This document shows, one piece after another, positions 8,284-37,493 of a stretch of 59,250 nucleotides of DNA. The translations under genes and the position numbers were made by a program. Under the pieces are notes generated by a model. The model saw only the letters and a program-made list of their open reading frames with translations. It had not been told where the DNA came from and searched no databases. Positions within the stretch are counted from its first letter, which is position 1. Every line of letters begins with the position of its first letter. This DNA comes from Minisyncoccota bacterium (GTDB lineage: Bacteria; Patescibacteriota; Minisyncoccia; Phycocordibacterales; UBA5272), in the NCBI GenBank assembly GCA_018061825.1, contig JAGOTK010000003.1, positions 1 through 59,250 of the forward strand, written 5' to 3'.

Positions 8284-9009
8284 TTAATAAGAAAATTCAA
8301 ATATAGATCTACTGACTCTTGCTCTATTCTTACTATTACAACTTGAATATCCTGTAGAAATAATGCCAAAATATGCCGTAGTATCTGTAGCTACACTGTA
8401 CCTTTCTTTAGAAAATACAACCAAAGCACACTGCGACACTATATCTCCTGTATTTGGATCTTCACTTTTTATTATTAAACCTATCGTAGTAGTAGCGTGT
8501 GTACCATCTCCTGTAATGTTGTAAGAAGATAGATTATTGTCTAAATTATTTTCCACAGCTTTTGGAGTAGAGGCATAAGCACCAAAAATTTGATTGTAAG
8601 TACTATCATCACTATTACAATAAATTCCACTCGGACTAGTGATACCTGTCTTGTTTATGACAGTACTTGAAGAAAAGAAAATATTTTGACTAGCATTTGT
8701 ATTAAAATCATAAGCACCGTCACTTGTAGATGTAGAATTTAAAATCAAAGAAATGCCAAGAATATCATCTTTAAAATTTGAATCTAAATATTTTGCGCAC
8801 TCTATACCAGAATCTGCTACAGCATAAGAAGATTTACTAAGCTCTATCAGTTTTGAAAAATATATTTCTTTTGTCATTATTCTTGATACAGAAAATGATG
8901 ATATAAGTAAAATAGAAATTATAATTAAAGTAAAAGCTAATATATACCCAGACTCTACATCTCTTTTTGATCTTTTTAAAAATAAATTCATAAAATTATT
9001 ATTTTGCAT
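8284..9009 (-). CDS. Type IV pilus minor component, PilX-like (hydrophobic N-terminus without the GFTLxE motif)
   Basis: 241 aa. N-terminus ESGYILAFTLIIISILLISSF; overlaps the upstream minor pilin gene by 11 nt; last gene of the pilin block. Confidence 0.5.
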   Translation of the reverse strand: MQNNNFMNLFLKRSKRDVESGYILAFTLIIISILLISSFSVSRIMTKEIYFSKLIELSKSSYAVADSGIECAKYLDSNFKDDILGISLILNSTSTSDGAYDFNTNASQNIFFSSSTVINKTGITSPSGIYCNSDDSTYNQIFGAYASTPKAVENNLDNNLSSYNITGDGTHATTTIGLIIKSEDPNTGDIVSQCALVVFSKERYSVATDTTAYFGIISTGYSSCNSKNRARVSRSIFEFSY

Positions 9010-9703
9010 ATATATAGTCTATAACACTTACAAATCTCTGCCCCTGAATAAAAGTGCCCCCTTCTAAATAGATCACCTTAACTTCGACTTTCAAAGTATT
9101 TGCTGAGATTTTTGTAAGATTTACAGTCCTTTTAAAATTTGTACTATATCCATATGAGCAATTATAACCATCACTTTCAATAAATTTTAATGATATACAT
9201 GATGGTGAAGATGCCAATTTGTTGTTAAATAGATTTCCAGGATTATAATAAAAAGCCACATTGTCTAAATTTAAATTTGTCCTAGAATCTACATCAAGAC
9301 CTTCCATGACTGCAGCTAAAAATATTTTCCAAGCAATACTTTGTGGATTTGTATCTGGTGGAACAGATGTATTGTAATAACTTATAGGCACAGAATCTCC
9401 TAAATTAGTATCACTAGAACAATATATAGAATCTATTTGCTGAGTAGTGTAATTATAATTAATATTTAAAATAGAGCATGATAAAGCAAAATTATCTCTA
9501 TAATTTTTAAAATTTTCAAGTGTCTCTTCAGCCAAATAAGAAGCGGTTACTCTATTTCTATTTTCTCTTATCACTTTTAAAGCATTAAAGGTCAAAGATA
9601 AAGGTCCCATCACAGCAGTCATTATCAAAGCAATAGATACTAATGCTTCTATTAATGTAAATCCTTTATTATTTATTTTGTTTGTTTTCATTAAAAATTT
9701 CAT
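8999..9703 (-). CDS. Type IV minor pilin (prepilin-type N-terminal cleavage/methylation domain)
   Basis: 234 aa. Class III signal NNKGFTLIEALVSIALIMTAVMG. Confidence 0.75.
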   Translation of the reverse strand: MKFLMKTNKINNKGFTLIEALVSIALIMTAVMGPLSLTFNALKVIRENRNRVTASYLAEETLENFKNYRDNFALSCSILNINYNYTTQQIDSIYCSSDTNLGDSVPISYYNTSVPPDTNPQSIAWKIFLAAVMEGLDVDSRTNLNLDNVAFYYNPGNLFNNKLASSPSCISLKFIESDGYNCSYGYSTNFKRTVNLTKISANTLKVEVKVIYLEGGTFIQGQRFVSVIDYIYAK

Positions 9704-30098: not shown

Positions 30099-32273
30099 CT
30101 AATAATCAATATCTGCATCTTTGGCGTATGTTTGAATAAAAGTTTTTCTTGGACCAACTTCTTGACCCATAAGCATATCAAATACTCTACTTGCTCCTTC
30201 TGCATCACGAGCAGATACCTGCTTTAAGATTCTATTTTTTGGATCCATTGTAGTTTCCCATAATTCTTCTGGATTCATTTCTCCTAGACCTTTGTATCTT
30301 TGGATTCTAATTTTTGTCTTCTTTTTTAAAGATTCGTCTTCTTTTTTATTTTTACTTTTCTTATCTTTCTTTTCATTATTATCTACAAATCCAGCATCTT
30401 TAAGATCAGCACTCAATTCTTCATTTTCTTCTATTTCTATAGATTCATCACTTTCTTCAACTTCTTCAAGATTAACATCTCCAATGAGTGCAAATTTTTC
30501 AGCATCAGAATAGGCATAATTTGCTTTCTTTCCTTCTGTGATCTTATAGAGTGGAGGTTGAGCAATATAAATAAATCCACTATCTATCACCTCTTTATAA
30601 TACCTAAAGAAAAATGTAAGAAGCAATGTACGAATATGCTCTCCGTCTACATCGGCATCTGTTGCTATTATCACTTTATGATAACGCATCTTTTTAATAT
30701 CAAAAGTGTCACCTATTGCAGCACCCATAGCAAGGACGAGATTTTTTACTTGTTCAGATCCTAGCATTTTATCGAGTCTTGCTCTTTCCACATTTAATAT
30801 CTTTCCTCTTAATGGGAGTATAGCCTGAGTCTTTCTATCGCGTCCCATCTTTGCAGAACCTCCAGCAGAATCTCCCTCTACAATAAACAATTCTGAATCT
30901 TCAGCATTATTGCTTTGACAATCTGCAAGCTTTCCAGGAAGAGTCATCCCTTCCAATGCTCCTTTACGAAGTACAGAATCTTTGGCAGCTTTAGCAGCTT
31001 TTCTAGCACGAAGAGCAAGTAATCCTTTACTGATAATTTCTTTTGCATCTTCTGGATGCTCTTCAAGAAAATTTGTAAATGCTTCAGAGAATACAGAAGA
31101 CACTGCTGATTGAGCTTCCATACTTCCTAGTTTTGCTTTTGTTTGTCCTTCAAATTGTATCTCATGTAGCTTTACAGATACTACAGCAGTCAACCCTTCG
31201 AGCACATCATCCCCTGTTAGATTTTCATCTTTTTCTTTTAAGATATTATTTTTACGAGCATATGAATTTATAAGACGAGTAAGTGCTGTCTTAAATCCAG
31301 ACACATGTGTACCTCCTTCAGAGTTTGGAATATTATTTGCAAAGGCTACTATCTTTGTAGAAAGATCATCTACATATTGAAGAGCAATCTCTACTCCTAC
31401 ATGCTCACTTTGATCTTCTATTTTCTTTTCTACATAAAAAATATTTTTATGTACCGGTTTACTATTAAAATTATAATGAGACACTAAACTTTTAAGTCCT
31501 CCTTCAAAAAAGAAAGTAAAGCTTTTATATCCAGAAACTACACTACCATCTAAATCTTTTATATAAGTAGATTCTTCAAAATTTTTTAAAAAAGTCGAAG
31601 AAGATTTTTCATTATCAAATTCTTCATATCTACTTCGTAGATCCAATATGTTAATCTCTAGACCTTTTACAAGATATGCTTGTTGACGAAGATGAGATAC
31701 TACACGAGATAATTCATATTCTATACCCTCTTTAAAAATTTCTATATCTGGCTTAAAAGTTACTATTGTACCGTTAAATTTTGTTTTACCTATTTCTTTT
31801 ACTTTTGCTTTTGCAATTCCTTTTGAATATTCTTGTACAAAAATTTTTCCTTCAAGATGGACTTCTACTCTCGTATAAATTGAGAGAGCATTTACCACTG
31901 AAGCTCCTACTCCATGAAGTCCTCCAGATACAGCATATCCTTCACCACTAAATTTTCCTCCAGCGTGAAGAGTTGTCATGATTGTCTCAAGAGCAGACAC
32001 TTTTGTCTTTGGATGAATGCCAGTCGGAATTCCACGACCATTATCAATTACACGAATATGATTATCAGGTAAAAGTGCAACTTCAATCTTACTTGCATAG
32101 CCGTTCATAGCTTCGTCACGAGAGTTGTCGAAAATTTCCCATATCAAATGATGAAGTCCATCAGGACCAGTTGAACCAATATACATTCCAGGACGCTTAC
32201 GAACTGGCTCAAGTCCTTCAAGGACCTGAATTGAGTCTGCACCATAATTTCCCTTTTTTGTTTCTTTTGCCAT
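30099..32273 (-). CDS. gyrB: DNA gyrase subunit B with a low-complexity insertion before the QRYKGLGEM motif
   Basis: 724 aa. YGADSIQVLEGLEPVRKRPGMYIG, Toprim EGDSAGG, RYKGLGEMNPEELWETTMDP. Confidence 0.95.
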   Translation of the reverse strand: MAKETKKGNYGADSIQVLEGLEPVRKRPGMYIGSTGPDGLHHLIWEIFDNSRDEAMNGYASKIEVALLPDNHIRVIDNGRGIPTGIHPKTKVSALETIMTTLHAGGKFSGEGYAVSGGLHGVGASVVNALSIYTRVEVHLEGKIFVQEYSKGIAKAKVKEIGKTKFNGTIVTFKPDIEIFKEGIEYELSRVVSHLRQQAYLVKGLEINILDLRSRYEEFDNEKSSSTFLKNFEESTYIKDLDGSVVSGYKSFTFFFEGGLKSLVSHYNFNSKPVHKNIFYVEKKIEDQSEHVGVEIALQYVDDLSTKIVAFANNIPNSEGGTHVSGFKTALTRLINSYARKNNILKEKDENLTGDDVLEGLTAVVSVKLHEIQFEGQTKAKLGSMEAQSAVSSVFSEAFTNFLEEHPEDAKEIISKGLLALRARKAAKAAKDSVLRKGALEGMTLPGKLADCQSNNAEDSELFIVEGDSAGGSAKMGRDRKTQAILPLRGKILNVERARLDKMLGSEQVKNLVLAMGAAIGDTFDIKKMRYHKVIIATDADVDGEHIRTLLLTFFFRYYKEVIDSGFIYIAQPPLYKITEGKKANYAYSDAEKFALIGDVNLEEVEESDESIEIEENEELSADLKDAGFVDNNEKKDKKSKNKKEDESLKKKTKIRIQRYKGLGEMNPEELWETTMDPKNRILKQVSARDAEGASRVFDMLMGQEVGPRKTFIQTYAKDADIDY

Positions 32274-32444
32274 GAGTTTAAAAAATTAAAAGAAAATAAT
32301 TTTGAAAATCCTTTGCTTCAGCTGAGCGAGATTCAAAAAAATATTTTCTTTTTTAAATTGTTAATAAGAATTTTAAGTTTATTTCATTTTTAAAAACACT
32401 ATATTTTATATGTATATTATAGCATTTTTTTAAATAAATTTCAT

Positions 32445-32473
32445 TTGACAAATAAGTATTTAAGAGTTAAAAT
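32445..32473 (+). promoter_or_regulatory. TTGACA-17-TAAAAT promoter
   Basis: Upstream of the 32521 ORF. Confidence 0.5.
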
Positions 32474-32520
32474 ATGTATCAGTAACCTATTAAATTAAAT
32501 AACCATTAAATTCTTTAATC

Positions 32521-32778
32521 ATGAGAGGTCAAAAAGAGCTACACGATTTATCACAAGATAAAAATATTCTCAGCCTTTTTAGTAAGCAAGAATTATCATT
32601 ACTAGAAACAAGAGGTATGACATTAGAAGGATTTCACTTCTACAAGGAAGCTGGGATAAAAATACAAGAATGCTCAAAATGTGTTTTTTGGGGAAATCTG
32701 AGAACGTTATTCCAAATGTATGGGATGACATCTTGCGTGCCTTGTAATTTTCAAGCTAAATTGTGTAGTAAAGACTAG
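32521..32778 (+). CDS. Hypothetical small Cys-containing protein
   Basis: 85-aa ORF. TTGACA-17-TAAAAT promoter at 32445-32473; hairpin terminator at 32802-32836. Confidence 0.45.
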   Translation: MRGQKELHDLSQDKNILSLFSKQELSLLETRGMTLEGFHFYKEAGIKIQECSKCVFWGNLRTLFQMYGMTSCVPCNFQAKLCSKD

Positions 32779-32801
32779 CAAATAATTACTCACAGTAGAG
32801 T

Positions 32802-32836
32802 AAAAGAAGTTGATAAATATCAACTTCTTTTTTATT
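32802..32836. terminator. Bidirectional hairpin
   Basis: aaaagaagttgata-aa-tatcaacttctttt. Confidence 0.7.
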
Positions 32837-32843
32837 TTCAAAT

Positions 32844-35333
32844 TTATCTAATTTCAAATCCTTTATTCTTTAAAGCGTTATATACTTTTTCTGCTTCAAG
32901 ATTTACTTCTTCGTCAGTCAAAGTTTTTTCTTTATCTTGATAAATCAATCTAAATCCAAAAGATTTCTTTTTTATATTTTCTATTTCTTTTTCAAATTTA
33001 TCAAAAAGATTTACTGAGATACATAAATCAGAAATATTTTCTCTAATTATTCTTTCCAATTCTTCTTCGTTTACTTCTTCTCCCGTCCAAAAAGCTATAT
33101 CACGCACTATAAATGGCATAAGTGAAAATGATTTATATTTTACATCTTCACTTAAATCTATTTCTTCTAAATTTACAAATTCGTATTCTTCTTCAAGGTC
33201 TTTTATAATTTCATCAAAATTAATTTCAAATTTATTTTCTTTTTGTTTTTCATTTTTAGATTCTAAAATATTAATATCTTTTATTTTTAAAGCTATTTTT
33301 ATTTCTTCTAATATCTTATTTTTAATTTCAGTATAATTTTTATTTTTCTTTCCGTCATCTATCGCAATAGCAAGACTTAGCCATTCTTTTTCTTTTCCAT
33401 TTTCGTCAGTAGAAAAACAATTTCCAAATTCAAAAATTTTTATCTCACTCAAATTGAGAAGTGGTATGTTAAAAATATTTTTCTGCACAGCATCTTCTAT
33501 TCCAACAGATAATTTATTTCTTAAAAAGTTTTTATCTTGAGCAACAGATTTGATTATTTCTATATCTCCTTTATTTCGTAGAGAATATGTATATACTTCA
33601 CTAAATCCAGCTTTAAATAAAATAGTTTTTACTACATTTGTAAAATACATTCTTTTAGAAAGCTTTCCAGATCTATTTAGATTTGGAATTTCACTTTTGA
33701 TATTGTTTAATCCGTATACTCTTGCTATTTCCTCTATCAAATCTTCTTTTATTCTTAGATCAAGTCTTTCCTCTGGTATTGTGATTATAAATCTTTCTTC
33801 ATCAATACTCTCAAGAACTCGACCATATCCTACAAACTTTCCTTTTTCTAAAAATTTATCCAAAGATTCTACCTCTGTTCCTTTTTCTAATTTACTAGAT
33901 GAATGTAAAATATTATCGCCCCCTATATACATAGCAAGATGATCTATTCCTTTTTCTACTTTTTCTCCTTTATGATAATCTTTTCCTTCAAAATAAATCC
34001 CTGTTGTTTTTATCTCTCCAGTATTTATAAAAATAAAATCTCCAAATCTTAAATCTTCTTTATCTTTTATTTCTTTTCCTAGATCTTTTGTATATAAATA
34101 TTTATCTATAGAAATAGAGGGTAAATATACTCCTTCATACAAATATGACACTAGAGATGAGCAAGAAAATGCATCTGGAGCATCTTCTCTCATAGAGCTT
34201 GGATTTTTATATTTTTTACCTACGACATCTCTAATCACGCTTTCAATGTTTTCTTTTGTAGAAATATATTTATATGAAAATCCAAATCTATCAAAAATAT
34301 TTTGTACTTCTTTTTGCTTTAATTCTGTTCCTAATATTTTATTTATTTCTTTTAAAGATACAGATACTTTGTATTTCCATTTACTTAATTTTTCTTTTGG
34401 AAAATTGTCTACAATCTCGCCTATTTCTATATTTGTATTTTCATCACTCGCATATTCTTTTATTAATTTTAAAGTTTCTACCATTCCGATTTCTACAAGT
34501 TCGTCAGCTAGCTCATTTTCAAATCTTTTACTTGCGTCTGTTTTAAGATTATATTTTTGTGAAGTCTTTCTAATTAAGACAGGATTAAAATTTGCACTTT
34601 CTACAATAATATTTTTTGTAGTAGAAGAAATCCCAGAATGCTTTCCACCTTTTATTCCAGCAAGACCGAGTACATTTTTAGCGTCTGCTATCACTAAAGT
34701 TTTTTCATCAAGACTTAATTCTTTATTATCAAGTGTTGTCATCACTTCACCCTCTTTCGCAAATCTTGCTTCAAGAAATTCTGAAATTAAATCAGCATCA
34801 TATGCATGCATTGGTTTATTAAAGCTAAATTGCACATAGTTTGTGATGTCTACAATGTTATTTATACTTTTTTGCCCAATACTTTCTAGTCTGTATTTTA
34901 TAAATTCTGGACTATCTTTTACTAATATATTATTTACTTTGCACCCCATAAATCTTGTACAAGATTTACCAGTATTTGCTTCTGCAGCAATTTTTACAAA
35001 ATCAGAATCAGATTTTATAACAGAAAAATTATTTTCTAAATTTTTCTCTCCTAAGTTTCTTTCTTTCATTTTAAAACCAAAAAGTGTAGCGACTTCTTTG
35101 GCCATATAATAATGTGATAGTGCATCGTGCGCTCTATTTGGAAGAACATTTAAATCATAAATCCAATCAGTCTTTTCTGCTTTTTTATCTTCTTCTTTTT
35201 CTGCTGTTTTATTTTCTATTTCAAAATATTCTTCTACTTCAAAAGCATTAGTAGAAATAACTTTAACAAAATCCTCCCCTTTTGGAATTTTCTCTTCTAC
35301 ATATTCTTGTATCCAACTGTGTAAATATTTCAT
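32844..35333 (-). CDS. pheT: Phenylalanyl-tRNA synthetase beta subunit, no OB tRNA-binding domain, NlpC/P60-like insertion in B5
   Basis: 829 aa. B3/B4 (PMHAYDADL), B5 halves (VSVSLKEINKILG... and ...IITIPEERLDLRIKEDLIEEIARVYGLNNI) split by ~155 aa carrying FSCSSLVSYLY / DHLAMYIGG / ILHSS. Confidence 0.9.
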   Translation of the reverse strand: MKYLHSWIQEYVEEKIPKGEDFVKVISTNAFEVEEYFEIENKTAEKEEDKKAEKTDWIYDLNVLPNRAHDALSHYYMAKEVATLFGFKMKERNLGEKNLENNFSVIKSDSDFVKIAAEANTGKSCTRFMGCKVNNILVKDSPEFIKYRLESIGQKSINNIVDITNYVQFSFNKPMHAYDADLISEFLEARFAKEGEVMTTLDNKELSLDEKTLVIADAKNVLGLAGIKGGKHSGISSTTKNIIVESANFNPVLIRKTSQKYNLKTDASKRFENELADELVEIGMVETLKLIKEYASDENTNIEIGEIVDNFPKEKLSKWKYKVSVSLKEINKILGTELKQKEVQNIFDRFGFSYKYISTKENIESVIRDVVGKKYKNPSSMREDAPDAFSCSSLVSYLYEGVYLPSISIDKYLYTKDLGKEIKDKEDLRFGDFIFINTGEIKTTGIYFEGKDYHKGEKVEKGIDHLAMYIGGDNILHSSSKLEKGTEVESLDKFLEKGKFVGYGRVLESIDEERFIITIPEERLDLRIKEDLIEEIARVYGLNNIKSEIPNLNRSGKLSKRMYFTNVVKTILFKAGFSEVYTYSLRNKGDIEIIKSVAQDKNFLRNKLSVGIEDAVQKNIFNIPLLNLSEIKIFEFGNCFSTDENGKEKEWLSLAIAIDDGKKNKNYTEIKNKILEEIKIALKIKDINILESKNEKQKENKFEINFDEIIKDLEEEYEFVNLEEIDLSEDVKYKSFSLMPFIVRDIAFWTGEEVNEEELERIIRENISDLCISVNLFDKFEKEIENIKKKSFGFRLIYQDKEKTLTDEEVNLEAEKVYNALKNKGFEIR

Positions 35334-35347
35334 AAAATGATTTTAAA

Positions 35348-36112
35348 TTAAAATTGATTTACTACTCTTAAATCTCCATTATATAAAAATCTAATATCGT
35401 CTAGGCCATATTTTAGCATTGCAAGTCTATCTATACCCCCACCAAAAGCAAAGCCAGAATATTTTTTAGAATCTATACCGCAATTTTCAAGGACTTTTGG
35501 ATGGACCATTCCTGCTCCCATAATTTCTATATATCCTGTCTTTTTACAAATATTGCATCCAGCTCCATCACATTTGAAGCATCTCATAGCCACTTCAAGA
35601 CCAGGCTCTACAAATGGAAAAAATGAAGAGCGAAATACTACATCAATTTCTTTTTCAAAAAATTCTGAAAAAAATTTTTCAAGTACTCCTTTTAAATTTC
35701 CAAGAGAAATATTTTCTCCGACAAGTAATCCTTCTACTTGGTGAAATTGCGCCTCATGAGTCGCATCTGTCGCTTCATTTCTAAAAACTTTTCCTGGGAC
35801 ACATATTGCAAGTGGGAAATTTTTATTCCCAACTTCTACTTCTTTTACAAAATTTTGCATGTATCTTATCTGTACGCTTGAAGTATGAGTACGCAATACT
35901 GCTTTTCCATTTTTTTCATCTTCTTTTAATTTTAAAAAGAAAGTATCTTGCATATCACGACTTGAGTGATCTTTAGGCACATTGAGAGCGTCAAAGTTGT
36001 ACCATTCTCTCTCTAGCTCTGGACCATCAGCAATATCAAAACCCATTTCTGTAAAAATCTTAGAAATCTTGGTTGATAAAATTGTGATTGGATGAGCGTG
36101 AGCTTCTTTCAT
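35348..36112 (-). CDS. pheS: Phenylalanyl-tRNA synthetase alpha subunit, catalytic core only
   Basis: 254 aa. HPITILSTKI, FRNEATDATHEAQFHQVEG (motif 2), CFKCDGAGCNICKKTGYIEIMGAGMVHP. Confidence 0.95.
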   Translation of the reverse strand: MKEAHAHPITILSTKISKIFTEMGFDIADGPELEREWYNFDALNVPKDHSSRDMQDTFFLKLKEDEKNGKAVLRTHTSSVQIRYMQNFVKEVEVGNKNFPLAICVPGKVFRNEATDATHEAQFHQVEGLLVGENISLGNLKGVLEKFFSEFFEKEIDVVFRSSFFPFVEPGLEVAMRCFKCDGAGCNICKKTGYIEIMGAGMVHPKVLENCGIDSKKYSGFAFGGGIDRLAMLKYGLDDIRFLYNGDLRVVNQF

Positions 36113-36221: not shown

Positions 36222-37493
36222 ATGCAAATAATATTTGAATATCTTTTCTATTGTTTTAGCTTCTTGTCATTATATGTACAGATATATTTTTTAGTTGTTT
36301 TTCTTGAAAAATATAAAGAGATAAAAATACACAAAGAACCTTTAAAGCTTTTTGAAAATGATGAAGACTATCCAGGAGTGACAATCACCGTCCCAGCATA
36401 CAATGAAGGATTAAATGTAAAGAAAACTGTCGCATCTCTTCTAAAACTTAATTATCCAAAAAATAAATTATTTTTGATATTAGTTGATGATGGTAGTACA
36501 GATAATACTTGGGAAATAATGCAAGAGTATAAAGACCATCCTCAAATAAAAATATTCACAAAAGAAAATGGAGGAAAGTATACCGCTCAAAATCTTGGAC
36601 TTAAAAATACAACCACTCCATTTTTGGGATGTCTTGATTCTGATTCTGAAGTTAATGAAGAAGCTTTAAATAGAATAATCTATCATTTTAAAGATCCAAC
36701 CATAATGGCTATAGCTCCTACTATAGTCTCACATAATGAGACAAACATAGTACAAAAAGCACAAAAGATAGATTATGAACTTCAGATTTATGTAAAAAAA
36801 ATGTATGGATTTATTGATGCTATACATGTGACTCCTGGACCATTTTCTATTTTTAGAAAAGAAGTATTTGAAAAAATTGGCCCATACAAGCATGCACATC
36901 TAACAGAAGATCAAGAGATAGCCCTTCGTATGCATCAGCACAACATGCGTATAGATCATGCTCCAGATGCTTATGTATATACAAATACCCCAAAGACTGT
37001 GAAAGCTTTATACAAGCAACGCACACGCTGGATCTATGGATTTATACGTAATGCTTTAGATTACAAACATCTACTATTTAAGAAAAAATACGGAAATATT
37101 GGATTTATAACATTACCTGCTGGATTCATATCTGTATTATCTGTATTATTTTTATTTATTTTTACAGGATACAATTTATACAACTACATAAAACAAAAAT
37201 CACTCATAGTGTCTGCTGTAGGCTTTAGTATAAAAACTTCCACTATAAAAATAGATCCTTTCTTTATAAATACTTCCGCTATTCTTTTTATATCTTTAAT
37301 AGTCTACAGCTCTCTATTCTTTTCATTATTTATGGGTCACAGGATTCTTCATGGTAAAACAAAATTCAATCTCAACATTGTATGGTTCTTTATAGTTTAT
37401 GGTGCCATAGCTCCATTTTGGCTTTTAAAAGCTGTGATAAACTCTATAAGAAATTATGAGACTAGTTGGACAAAAGAGATTGATAGTAGATAA
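36222..37493 (+). CDS. Processive family-2 glycosyltransferase (PgaC/IcaA/cellulose-synthase-like)
   Basis: 423 aa. TVPAYNEG, VDDGSTDNT, LDSDS, TEDQEIALR, QRTRW; N-terminal plus 3-4 C-terminal TM helices. Confidence 0.85.
   Translation: MQIIFEYLFYCFSFLSLYVQIYFLVVFLEKYKEIKIHKEPLKLFENDEDYPGVTITVPAYNEGLNVKKTVASLLKLNYPKNKLFLILVDDGSTDNTWEIMQEYKDHPQIKIFTKENGGKYTAQNLGLKNTTTPFLGCLDSDSEVNEEALNRIIYHFKDPTIMAIAPTIVSHNETNIVQKAQKIDYELQIYVKKMYGFIDAIHVTPGPFSIFRKEVFEKIGPYKHAHLTEDQEIALRMHQHNMRIDHAPDAYVYTNTPKTVKALYKQRTRWIYGFIRNALDYKHLLFKKKYGNIGFITLPAGFISVLSVLFLFIFTGYNLYNYIKQKSLIVSAVGFSIKTSTIKIDPFFINTSAILFISLIVYSSLFFSLFMGHRILHGKTKFNLNIVWFFIVYGAIAPFWLLKAVINSIRNYETSWTKEIDSR

Follow-up and report, generated by a model that had tools for sequence, protein, structure and literature searches.

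A nested NlpC/P60 (C40) peptidase domain in the B5 domain of the phenylalanyl-tRNA synthetase β-subunit of a Minisyncoccota bacterium

The P60-type DL-endopeptidases Acd24020 of C. difficile (7CFL), MepS/Spr of E. coli (8XUP, 2K1G), and LytE and CwlO of B. subtilis are secreted or lipid-anchored hydrolases of the cell wall. The nearest precedent for a wall-type peptidase inside the cell is YkfC of B. cereus (3H41), a cytoplasmic NlpC/P60 enzyme that works on free murein peptides. To our knowledge, bacterial aminoacyl-tRNA synthetases rarely carry unrelated enzymes. An NlpC/P60 domain was found within the β-subunit of phenylalanyl-tRNA synthetase (PheRS), the product of pheT, in a stretch of 59,250 nucleotides from a Minisyncoccota bacterium (positions 1 to 59,250 of the forward strand of contig JAGOTK010000003.1, assembly GCA_018061825.1; the whole of this stretch is called the window below). 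The domain shares with the P60-type enzymes the fold, the Cys...His...His order and a Tyr in front of the Cys. Unlike them, it has no signal peptide and is located inside a cytoplasmic synthetase.

The β-subunits of canonical PheRS, such as those of S. haemolyticus (2RHS), E. coli (3PCO), and T. thermophilus (1PYS/2IY5), have the order B1, B3/4, B5, CLM, and anticodon-binding domain in common with the window PheT, and pheS is adjacent. The window PheT differs from these in that B2 is lacking, the score falls below the cut-off of TIGR00472, and B5 is broken by 158 residues. The parts of the gene that matter here are the following:

32844 to 35333, minus strand: pheT, an open reading frame (ORF) of 829 amino acids (aa) with B1, B3/4, a split B5, CLM (B6-7), and FDX-ACB (B8), without B2/OB
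34449 to 34961, minus strand: B3/4 editing domain, PheT residues 125-295 (Pfam)
34272 to 34382, minus strand: N-terminal half of B5, PheT residues 318-354
33798 to 34271, minus strand: nested NlpC/P60 (C40) domain of 158 residues, PheT residues 355-512, divided into a lead helix (355-372), a conserved core (373-480), and a tail (481-512)
33699 to 33797, minus strand: C-terminal half of B5, PheT residues 513-545
34161 to 34163, minus strand: codon TGC of the predicted catalytic Cys391, in the motif FSCSS
33939 to 33941, minus strand: codon CAT of the predicted catalytic His465
33903 to 33905, minus strand: codon CAT of His477, the third residue of the predicted triad

An initial annotation of the window, made without database searches, had proposed an NlpC/P60-like domain with a Cys-His-His set at 33798-34271, inserted inside the B5 domain of PheT. 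Profile searches, a structural model, and the triad all bear out this proposal. The insert alone (33798-34271) scored 43.2 bits (E 4.3e-11) against NLPC_P60 (PF00877) and the whole PheT scored 37.1 bits (E 3.4e-9), the cut-off being 23 in both cases. In the alignment with 2rhs_B, the PheT of S. haemolyticus, residues 353 and 513 of the query pair with residues 443 and 449 of the chain, respectively. The insert of about 158 aa thus replaces a loop of 5 residues between two B5 strands, the insertion site being the loop of a β-hairpin. The boundaries were also fixed with PheTs from the family that have no insert (ORFs of roughly 640 aa in three genomes), for which the match stops at 354/355 and restarts at 512/513. 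Both of the flanking B5 strings quoted in the initial annotation are present in the translation.

An AlphaFold2 model of residues 318-545, covering B5 and the insert and built with 18 relatives, had a mean predicted local distance difference test score (pLDDT) of 93.1 and a predicted template modelling score (pTM) of 0.88. A fold comparison had been proposed as a check in the initial annotation, and upon searching the PDB with Foldseek all 40 matches at E ≤ 1e-3 proved to be NlpC/P60 enzymes. They include Acd24020, MepS, LytE, CwlO, YkfC-like proteins, and the diffocin hub hydrolase. The top match was 7cfl_B (E 1.9e-9; TM 0.84, target-normalised; root-mean-square deviation 2.3), and this C. 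difficile autolysin domain, 7cfl, is also the nearest solved relative by sequence (profile E 1.9e-18). The YkfC structure 3H41 matches the insert both by profile (E 9.3e-9) and by fold. By its profile score, its papain-like α+β fold, and the non-permuted Cys-His-polar order of its residues, the insert is an NlpC/P60 domain (PF00877, MEROPS C40) nested in PheT B5. No signal peptide was read from the sequence of the insert-bearing PheT, no SH3b domain was detected in it by Pfam, and no homology of the insert to tRNA deacylases was seen among the Pfam, NCBIfam, or PDB fold matches.

The residues C391, H465, and H477 had been named as candidate catalytic residues, with the Cys codon TGC at 34161-34163. 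The codons were confirmed. All 50 aligned PheTs, which are 39-75% identical to this one, have the three residues and Y375 unchanged. Cys and both His residues are likewise invariant in the 19 insert-bearing genomes (this genome and its relatives). In a larger sample of 267 module sequences, weighted towards the query's relatives, 247 have an intact triad and 256 have Tyr at the position of Y375. This position corresponds to that of the transition-state-stabilising Gln of papain and to Tyr226 of B. cereus YkfC (BcYkfC), as judged by alignment and from section 3.7 of PMC2954226. The triad is broken in a few embedded copies (P0111, P0212, P0190, P0246, and P0247), in which Cys is changed to Ser, or His to Leu or Tyr. 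The mean pairwise identity of the insert core (373-480) is 0.69, equal to that of the B3/4 core, which is among the most conserved parts of PheT; values of 0.51 and 0.54 were obtained for CLM and B8. The insert, part of an essential housekeeping protein, is under strong purifying selection and hence almost certainly functional.

The source genome (536,850 bases, 92.9% complete) is not the only one with this arrangement. A survey of PheT sequences, as suggested in the initial annotation, revealed the same insertion in 19 of 41 relatives when the source genome is counted. Its own genus accounts for 13 of 14, the remaining genera of the family for 2 of 10, and the remaining families of the order for 3 of 16. 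The ORFs holding the insert in these relatives are always 630-860 aa long, save for an extra frame of 223 aa in G040. An even sample of the phylum gave matches in 19 of 401 genomes; among these matches, eleven lie in frames of 929-970 aa, five in frames of 151-217 aa, and one in a frame of 342 aa. The one long frame that was read, the 933-aa PheT of G298, retains an N-terminal region absent from the window PheT. A search of PheT-sized proteins from several sources, restricted to the insert, gave 169 matches out of 844 candidates. Of the 120 matches listed, nearly all have the precomputed domain string B3_4 + NLPC_P60 + B5 + CLM + FDX-ACB, and some carry the NCBI names 'C40 family peptidase' or 'phenylalanine--tRNA ligase beta subunit-related'. 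Among 1.84 billion cluster representatives, 253 match the insert at E ≤ 1e-3. Most of the best 150 of these are 730-840 aa long and match at about residues 330-490. Weaker matches in the insert searches include P0170 (1183 aa), P0244, and P0248, unrelated proteins with nine, five, and three tandem NlpC/P60 domains, respectively.

A pattern scan of 185,579 species genomes yielded 191 relatives, a number that undercounts the fusion because the search patterns fit only the subtype with D, R, and Q at the positions discussed below. The best 80 of the loci of these 191 relatives were used for all locus counts given here. At 79 of these 80 loci the module is part of a frame of 692-903 aa, the remaining one having a frame of 256 aa. 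Their record titles include Paceibacterota, Campbell-, Zambryski-, Yonath-, Terry-, Lloyd-, and Nomurabacteria, Minisyncoccia, and 'Saccharibacteria'. The nested arrangement is genuine, old, and widespread in this bacterial group: an essential housekeeping protein in a large part of the ultra-small Patescibacteria carries a nested peptidase. The initial annotation knew of no described PheRS with this insertion, and none was found in a full-text literature search, the coverage of which leaves out most subscription journals. The passages retrieved from a 2023 survey of papain-like peptidases do not mention the fusion. Replacement of a free-standing NlpC/P60 enzyme by the insert was considered and rejected: the insert is the sole PF00877 match in the source genome, and most insert-less relatives have none at all.

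The module is also encoded by separate genes of about 150-230 aa, in which the peptidase is flanked by the halves of B5. Those of about 200-233 aa (P0127, P0139, P0147, P0157, P0185, P0208, P0253, and P0122) consist of a Met followed by the N-terminal half of B5, the peptidase, a strand resembling the C-terminal half of B5, and a short tail. In an alignment of 11 separate genes with 3 embedded references (A3), Cys and both His residues are invariant in 14 of 14 rows. Four genomes (G049, G383, G216, and G291) have a separate module gene together with a complete, insert-less PheT. The three neighbourhoods of separate genes that were read contain a dCTP deaminase with DHFR, an Mbeg1-like protein with YibE/F, and BipA, respectively. 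In the cluster representatives P0125 and P0136 the module is fused to a Peptidase_C39_2 domain. Three relatives that are 100% complete, G152, G027, and G034, are without any B3/4 domain. The PheRS of G152 (L115:843-1982) has 379 aa and consists of a PheS core and FDX-ACB, like the mitochondrial enzyme, and in G034 an ORF of 428 aa matches PheT residues 512-821 only. Complex prediction for the monomer-type PheRS of G152 with its separate module gave no answer (score 0.00), which speaks neither for nor against binding.

Two main subtypes of the module can be distinguished by positions 390, 406, and 411. The window copy has S390, S406, and K411 where the other subtype reads D, R, and Q; compared with the P60-type enzymes, it has Ser, Ser, and Lys for the Asp preceding the Cys, the Arg in 'PR', and the Gln that follows. 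In the 267 module sequences, the combination S,S,K occurs 128 times, D,R,Q 115 times, and others 24 times. The S,S,K sequences, including the window PheT, form one supported group (SH-aLRT 98), which also contains three separate forms and both fused forms. In the same tree, the separate forms appear in at least three places, nested among embedded forms. This was a quick maximum likelihood tree of 92 rows (a random 25 S,S,K and 50 other embedded rows, with all separate and fused rows kept), midpoint-rooted and with SH-aLRT as its sole support measure.

By alignment, the D and R positions are those of Asp237 and Arg255 of BcYkfC (PMC2954226). In sections 3.4, 3.5, 3.7, and 3.8 of that paper, Asp237, Ser239, and Tyr226 of BcYkfC are described as bonding γ-D-Glu, Asp237, which has Arg255 as its partner, by hydrogen-bonding its α-NH; in section 3.8, Ser239 and a small residue at 257 are said to serve the D-Glu carboxylate. 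Of the signature given there, Asp237 and Arg255 are replaced in the window copy by Ser390 and Ser406. Ser239 and the small residue 257 are present as S392 (Ser in 249 of 267 sequences) and S408 (Ser, Thr, or Ala in 255 of 267). The conserved hydrophobic Trp228, two residues past the Tyr, has no counterpart in the module, which reads Y-K-N-P here and Y-K-x-G, with x variable, in the other subtype. YkfC, also known as DPP VI, has in addition an SH3b domain with Tyr118, and an Asp256 that binds L-Ala at its free amine group; the insert has no SH3b domain, and Ile407 is the equivalent of Asp256 in the window copy.

From these residues, the ancestral (D,R,Q) module looks like a γ-D-Glu peptidase. 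The window copy belongs to a derived subtype marked by a joint change at three canonical positions (D to S, R to S, and Q to K), two of which are pocket residues. Because of these pocket changes and because its genome is without the C39_2 gene discussed below, its specificity has probably shifted to another substrate. A cytoplasmic muropeptide, one of the substrates put forward in the initial annotation, fits the ancestral form of the insert but the window copy less well, as two residues of the γ-D-Glu pocket (PMC2954226) are replaced in the latter. The subtype difference and the missing partner make up a natural comparison pair.

The surroundings of pheT in the window and in the 80 related loci are of interest with respect to this partner. 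In the window, they are as follows:

35348 to 36112, minus strand: pheS, 254 aa, class II core only, without the N-terminal coiled coil, 15 nt upstream of pheT
32274 to 32843, no strand: gap between pheT and gyrB, 570 bp, AT-rich
30099 to 32273, minus strand: gyrB, the conserved gene downstream of pheT (51 of 80 related loci)

The gene order at the 80 loci is pheS (72), pheT, a gene of about 190 aa (51), and gyrB (51). In 51 of the 80 loci the gene of about 190 aa lies on the strand of pheT and downstream of it, mostly before gyrB; in 40 of these it is the immediate neighbour of pheT. Where it is the immediate neighbour, its distance from the pheT stop is mostly -40 to +30 nt. The product is a Peptidase_C39_2 protein (PF13529, E 5.5e-15) without a signal peptide, in which Q11, C25, and H138 are invariant and D160 is nearly so (30 aligned members). 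A model of this partner (pLDDT 96.0) resembles, according to Foldseek, C39 leader peptidases, a C39-like B. anthracis protein, a pseudomurein isopeptidase, and a phytochelatin-synthase-like enzyme. Among the matches are 6mpz (E 1.4e-7), the ComA peptidase domain, PCAT1, and the isopeptidase PeiR (8z4h). The gene behind pheT in the relatives belongs to the family of the single-domain cysteine peptidases of PF13529 (B. anthracis 3ERV) and the C39 leader peptidases (6MPZ, ComA, PCAT1); it is absent from the window and from its genome. PF13529 had no match anywhere in the source genome; in its genus, matches are found in 3 of 14 genomes and never adjoin pheT. A C39_2 pseudogene in the gap between pheT and gyrB was looked for and not found, no tblastn match being obtained in 32274-32843 with 51 partner proteins as queries. 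Apart from pheS and a threonyl-tRNA-synthetase-like gene (15 loci), no tRNA enzymes lie beside the module in the three separate or the 80 embedded loci.

The explanation favoured here, and held to be somewhat more probable than all others together, is that the insert is an autonomous cytoplasmic cysteine amidase, carried by PheT and working on a substrate of its own. The insert would be a folded, catalytically competent papain-like NlpC/P60 (C40) amidase in the hairpin loop of B5. Owing to its nesting in B5, it is made in the cytoplasm as a part of PheRS, and PheT would be an always-expressed carrier. With His465 and His477 as its activators, Cys391 would attack small peptides or conjugates of the cytoplasm at an amide bond, Tyr375 taking the position of the transition-state-stabilising Tyr of the family. 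The ancestral module, with D,R,Q and the γ-D-Glu pocket signature, was co-transcribed with, and in some cases fused to, a cytoplasmic cysteine peptidase of the C39_2 type, and this association with a second peptidase suggests a two-step trimming of peptides, e.g., of murein-type stem peptides. The separate genes at unrelated loci, alongside a complete insert-less PheT, argue for autonomy from PheRS. Should the domain indeed act on murein-type or other small peptides, this would point to a cytoplasmic salvage step in organisms that rely on hosts for building blocks; neither glutamate racemase nor MurD was seen in the source genome.

A number of observations do not sit well with an autonomous amidase. 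Mere carriage does not explain why the domain should stay permanently and covalently nested in PheRS in hundreds of lineages. The halves of B5, which in PheRS pack against the catalytic α-subunit, are retained in the separate genes, and for this reason the module could still dock on PheS; the packing of B5 on α is our own mapping of section 15 of PMC8136816, in which other domain names are used. The separate genes share no neighbour across the three loci read, and G152 keeps the module without having B3/4 or a β-subunit. In the subtype of the window, two of the residues that define γ-D-Glu recognition are replaced. No C39_2 match exists in 10 of the 13 insert-bearing genomes of the genus or in the source genome, where a two-peptidase route cannot operate as the C39_2 gene is absent; moreover, PF13529 is equally frequent in insert-less (5 of 22) and insert-bearing (5 of 19) relatives. 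Finally, the domain can persist without catalysis, given that embedded copies lacking Cys or a His are retained, which shows that catalysis, as read from these residues, is not indispensable everywhere.

Next in rank, albeit improbable, is a hydrolase or acyl-transferase coupled to tRNA, in line with the aminoacyl- or peptidyl-tRNA substrates proposed in the initial annotation. It would act on Phe-AMP, Phe-tRNA, or mis-acylated or N-blocked aminoacyl-tRNA, either as extra proofreading or by way of an aminoacyl thioester on Cys391 that is passed to an acceptor. If the domain does act on aminoacyl-tRNA, this would be a new editing or transfer chemistry. PheRS is the sole fusion carrier apart from the C39_2 fusions: the frames are PheT-sized at 79 of 80 loci and in most of the best 150 of the 253 representatives. 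The host domain B5 contacts the aminoacylation domain of α (by the mapping of PMC8136816, section 15), the halves of B5 are retained by the separate-gene forms, and G152, with its 379-aa monomer-type PheRS and no B3/4, keeps the module. LRAT-type enzymes, which belong to the wider NlpC/P60 superfamily, use acyl-thioester chemistry. Several results speak against this explanation, however. Editing-pocket residues conserved in bacterial PheRS include a Pro, a His, and a Glu according to PMC8136816, and P174, H176, and E245 of B3/4, which were equated with these by motif only, are invariant in 50 of 50 relatives. Replacement of peptidyl-tRNA hydrolase (Pth) was considered and rejected, PF01195 being present in 40 of 41 relatives, the source genome included. 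Since the B3/4 residues are invariant and Pth is present, no known deacylation function is missing. Separate modules at unrelated loci coexist with a complete insert-less PheT, the conserved partner is another peptidase and not a tRNA enzyme, the ancestral form has the γ-D-Glu peptide-binding signature of PMC2954226, and at E ≤ 1e-3 only NlpC/P60 peptidases match the fold. The evidence thus leans against the tRNA-linked part of the functions first proposed, which also comprised a cytoplasmic muropeptide and a moonlighting module. A specific version in which the domain is a new catalytic add-on of the synthetase is a shade less probable still. Cys391, held by B5 beside the α active site, would take up the aminoacyl group of Phe-AMP or of (mis)acylated tRNAPhe as a thioester and then hydrolyse it or transfer it to an amine. 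The changes D to S, R to S, and Q to K would in that case mark a departure from γ-D-Glu peptides, and PheRS of these bacteria would have a second editing route of unrelated fold or be a tRNA-dependent aminoacyl-transferase. Nothing ties the insert to tRNA chemistry; its link to PheRS is striking all the same.

Two further explanations are given even less credence, and equally little each. The module and its C39-like partner may form a pair that trims a ribosomal peptide or removes an isopeptide-linked tag, of which the genus of the window keeps the NlpC/P60 half only. The genes of the pair are operon neighbours, in some lineages they are fused, and the partner model is closest to double-glycine leader peptidases and also to the isopeptidase PeiR. 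No gene for a precursor peptide or transporter recurs in the 80 loci, however, the partner is absent from the source genome, and the Foldseek likeness is that of a generic papain-like core, with query-normalised TM values of 0.52-0.63 for the top ten matches. The insert could also have a non-catalytic role for PheRS, bracing its structure, offering a binding platform, or sensing redox state through a thiol, with the triad being kept for stability or sensing and not for turnover. Such a role would be consistent with the retention of P0111, P0212, P0190, P0246, and P0247 without Cys or a His and with the loss of two canonical pocket residues in the subtype, and a compensating surface is conceivable as PheS has lost its coiled coil and PheT its B2. 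It is at odds with the intact Cys and His residues in 247 of 267 sequences and Tyr at position 375 in 256, with the insert core being as conserved as that of B3/4, and with the triad in all 14 rows of alignment A3 (11 separate, 3 embedded). PheTs of 929-970 aa carry the insert as well, and the one read, that of G298 (933 aa), keeps the N-terminal region that is absent from the window PheT. An assembly chimera or a recent foreign insertion unique to this contig, finally, is refuted and has virtually no probability left. The same nesting site recurs in the genomes of 18 relatives, in 79 of 80 loci of other species, and in 169 proteins; in GC content the insert (0.281) agrees with the rest of pheT (0.260), and the reading frame of pheT is continuous through the insert. 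Words of pheT are present at a fraction of at least 0.97 in 11 sequencing runs of 5 studies, all of which are flagged as possible sources and are not counted as independent. The read pieces on pheT are 18-27 nt long, with one piece of 242 nt at the 3' end, and none spans the insert. Where the initial annotation had reckoned with a missing profile match, a segment without conserved Cys and His, or an assembly error, a profile match was found, Cys and His are conserved, and recurrence in many genomes excludes a chimera.

Outside the insert, the window PheT adjoins pheS and holds B3/4, B5, CLM, and FDX-ACB as in bacterial PheT. Its Pfam matches are B3_4 (125-295), B5 in two stretches (the second at 506-541), CLM, FDX-ACB, and NLPC_P60. 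TIGR00472 matches it in two stretches with 375.7 bits, below the cut-off of 402.65. Query residue 56 aligns directly to chain residue 161 of 2rhs_B, showing that PheT is without B2 (OB). PheRS is pared down here, PheS being without the N-terminal coiled coil and PheT without B2/OB. These two parts, in other bacteria, extend to the tRNA elbow or are similar to modules that bind tRNA.

The peptidoglycan precursor pathway of the source genome looks incomplete. Neither glutamate racemase (TIGR00067) nor MurD was found above the cut-off in this 92.9% complete genome, and its Mur ligases are two only, MurE-like and MurF-like (contigs C5, L113:825-2141, and C7, L114:1167-2573). Of the 15 genomes in the genus, 5 have a MurD that scores above the cut-off.

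Nothing convincing came out of scanning the pheT-gyrB gap for ORFs and with Rfam. An ORF at 32521-32778 on the plus strand, which sits in the slot of the C39_2 gene of the relatives, encodes a Cys-rich product of 85 aa; it is not matched by Pfam, nor credibly by Rfam. Weak tblastn matches of C39_2 proteins at 8.6-8.9 kb fall in a pilin-like ORF. On the minus strand at 8284-9703, two adjacent ORFs of 241 and 234 aa have N-termini like those of type IV pilins or pseudopilins. Conservation of the neighbourhood extends in part to the family-2 glycosyltransferase encoded divergently from pheS at 36222-37493 on the plus strand: 13 of the 80 loci have a homologue of it upstream of pheT, at a distance of two or three genes.

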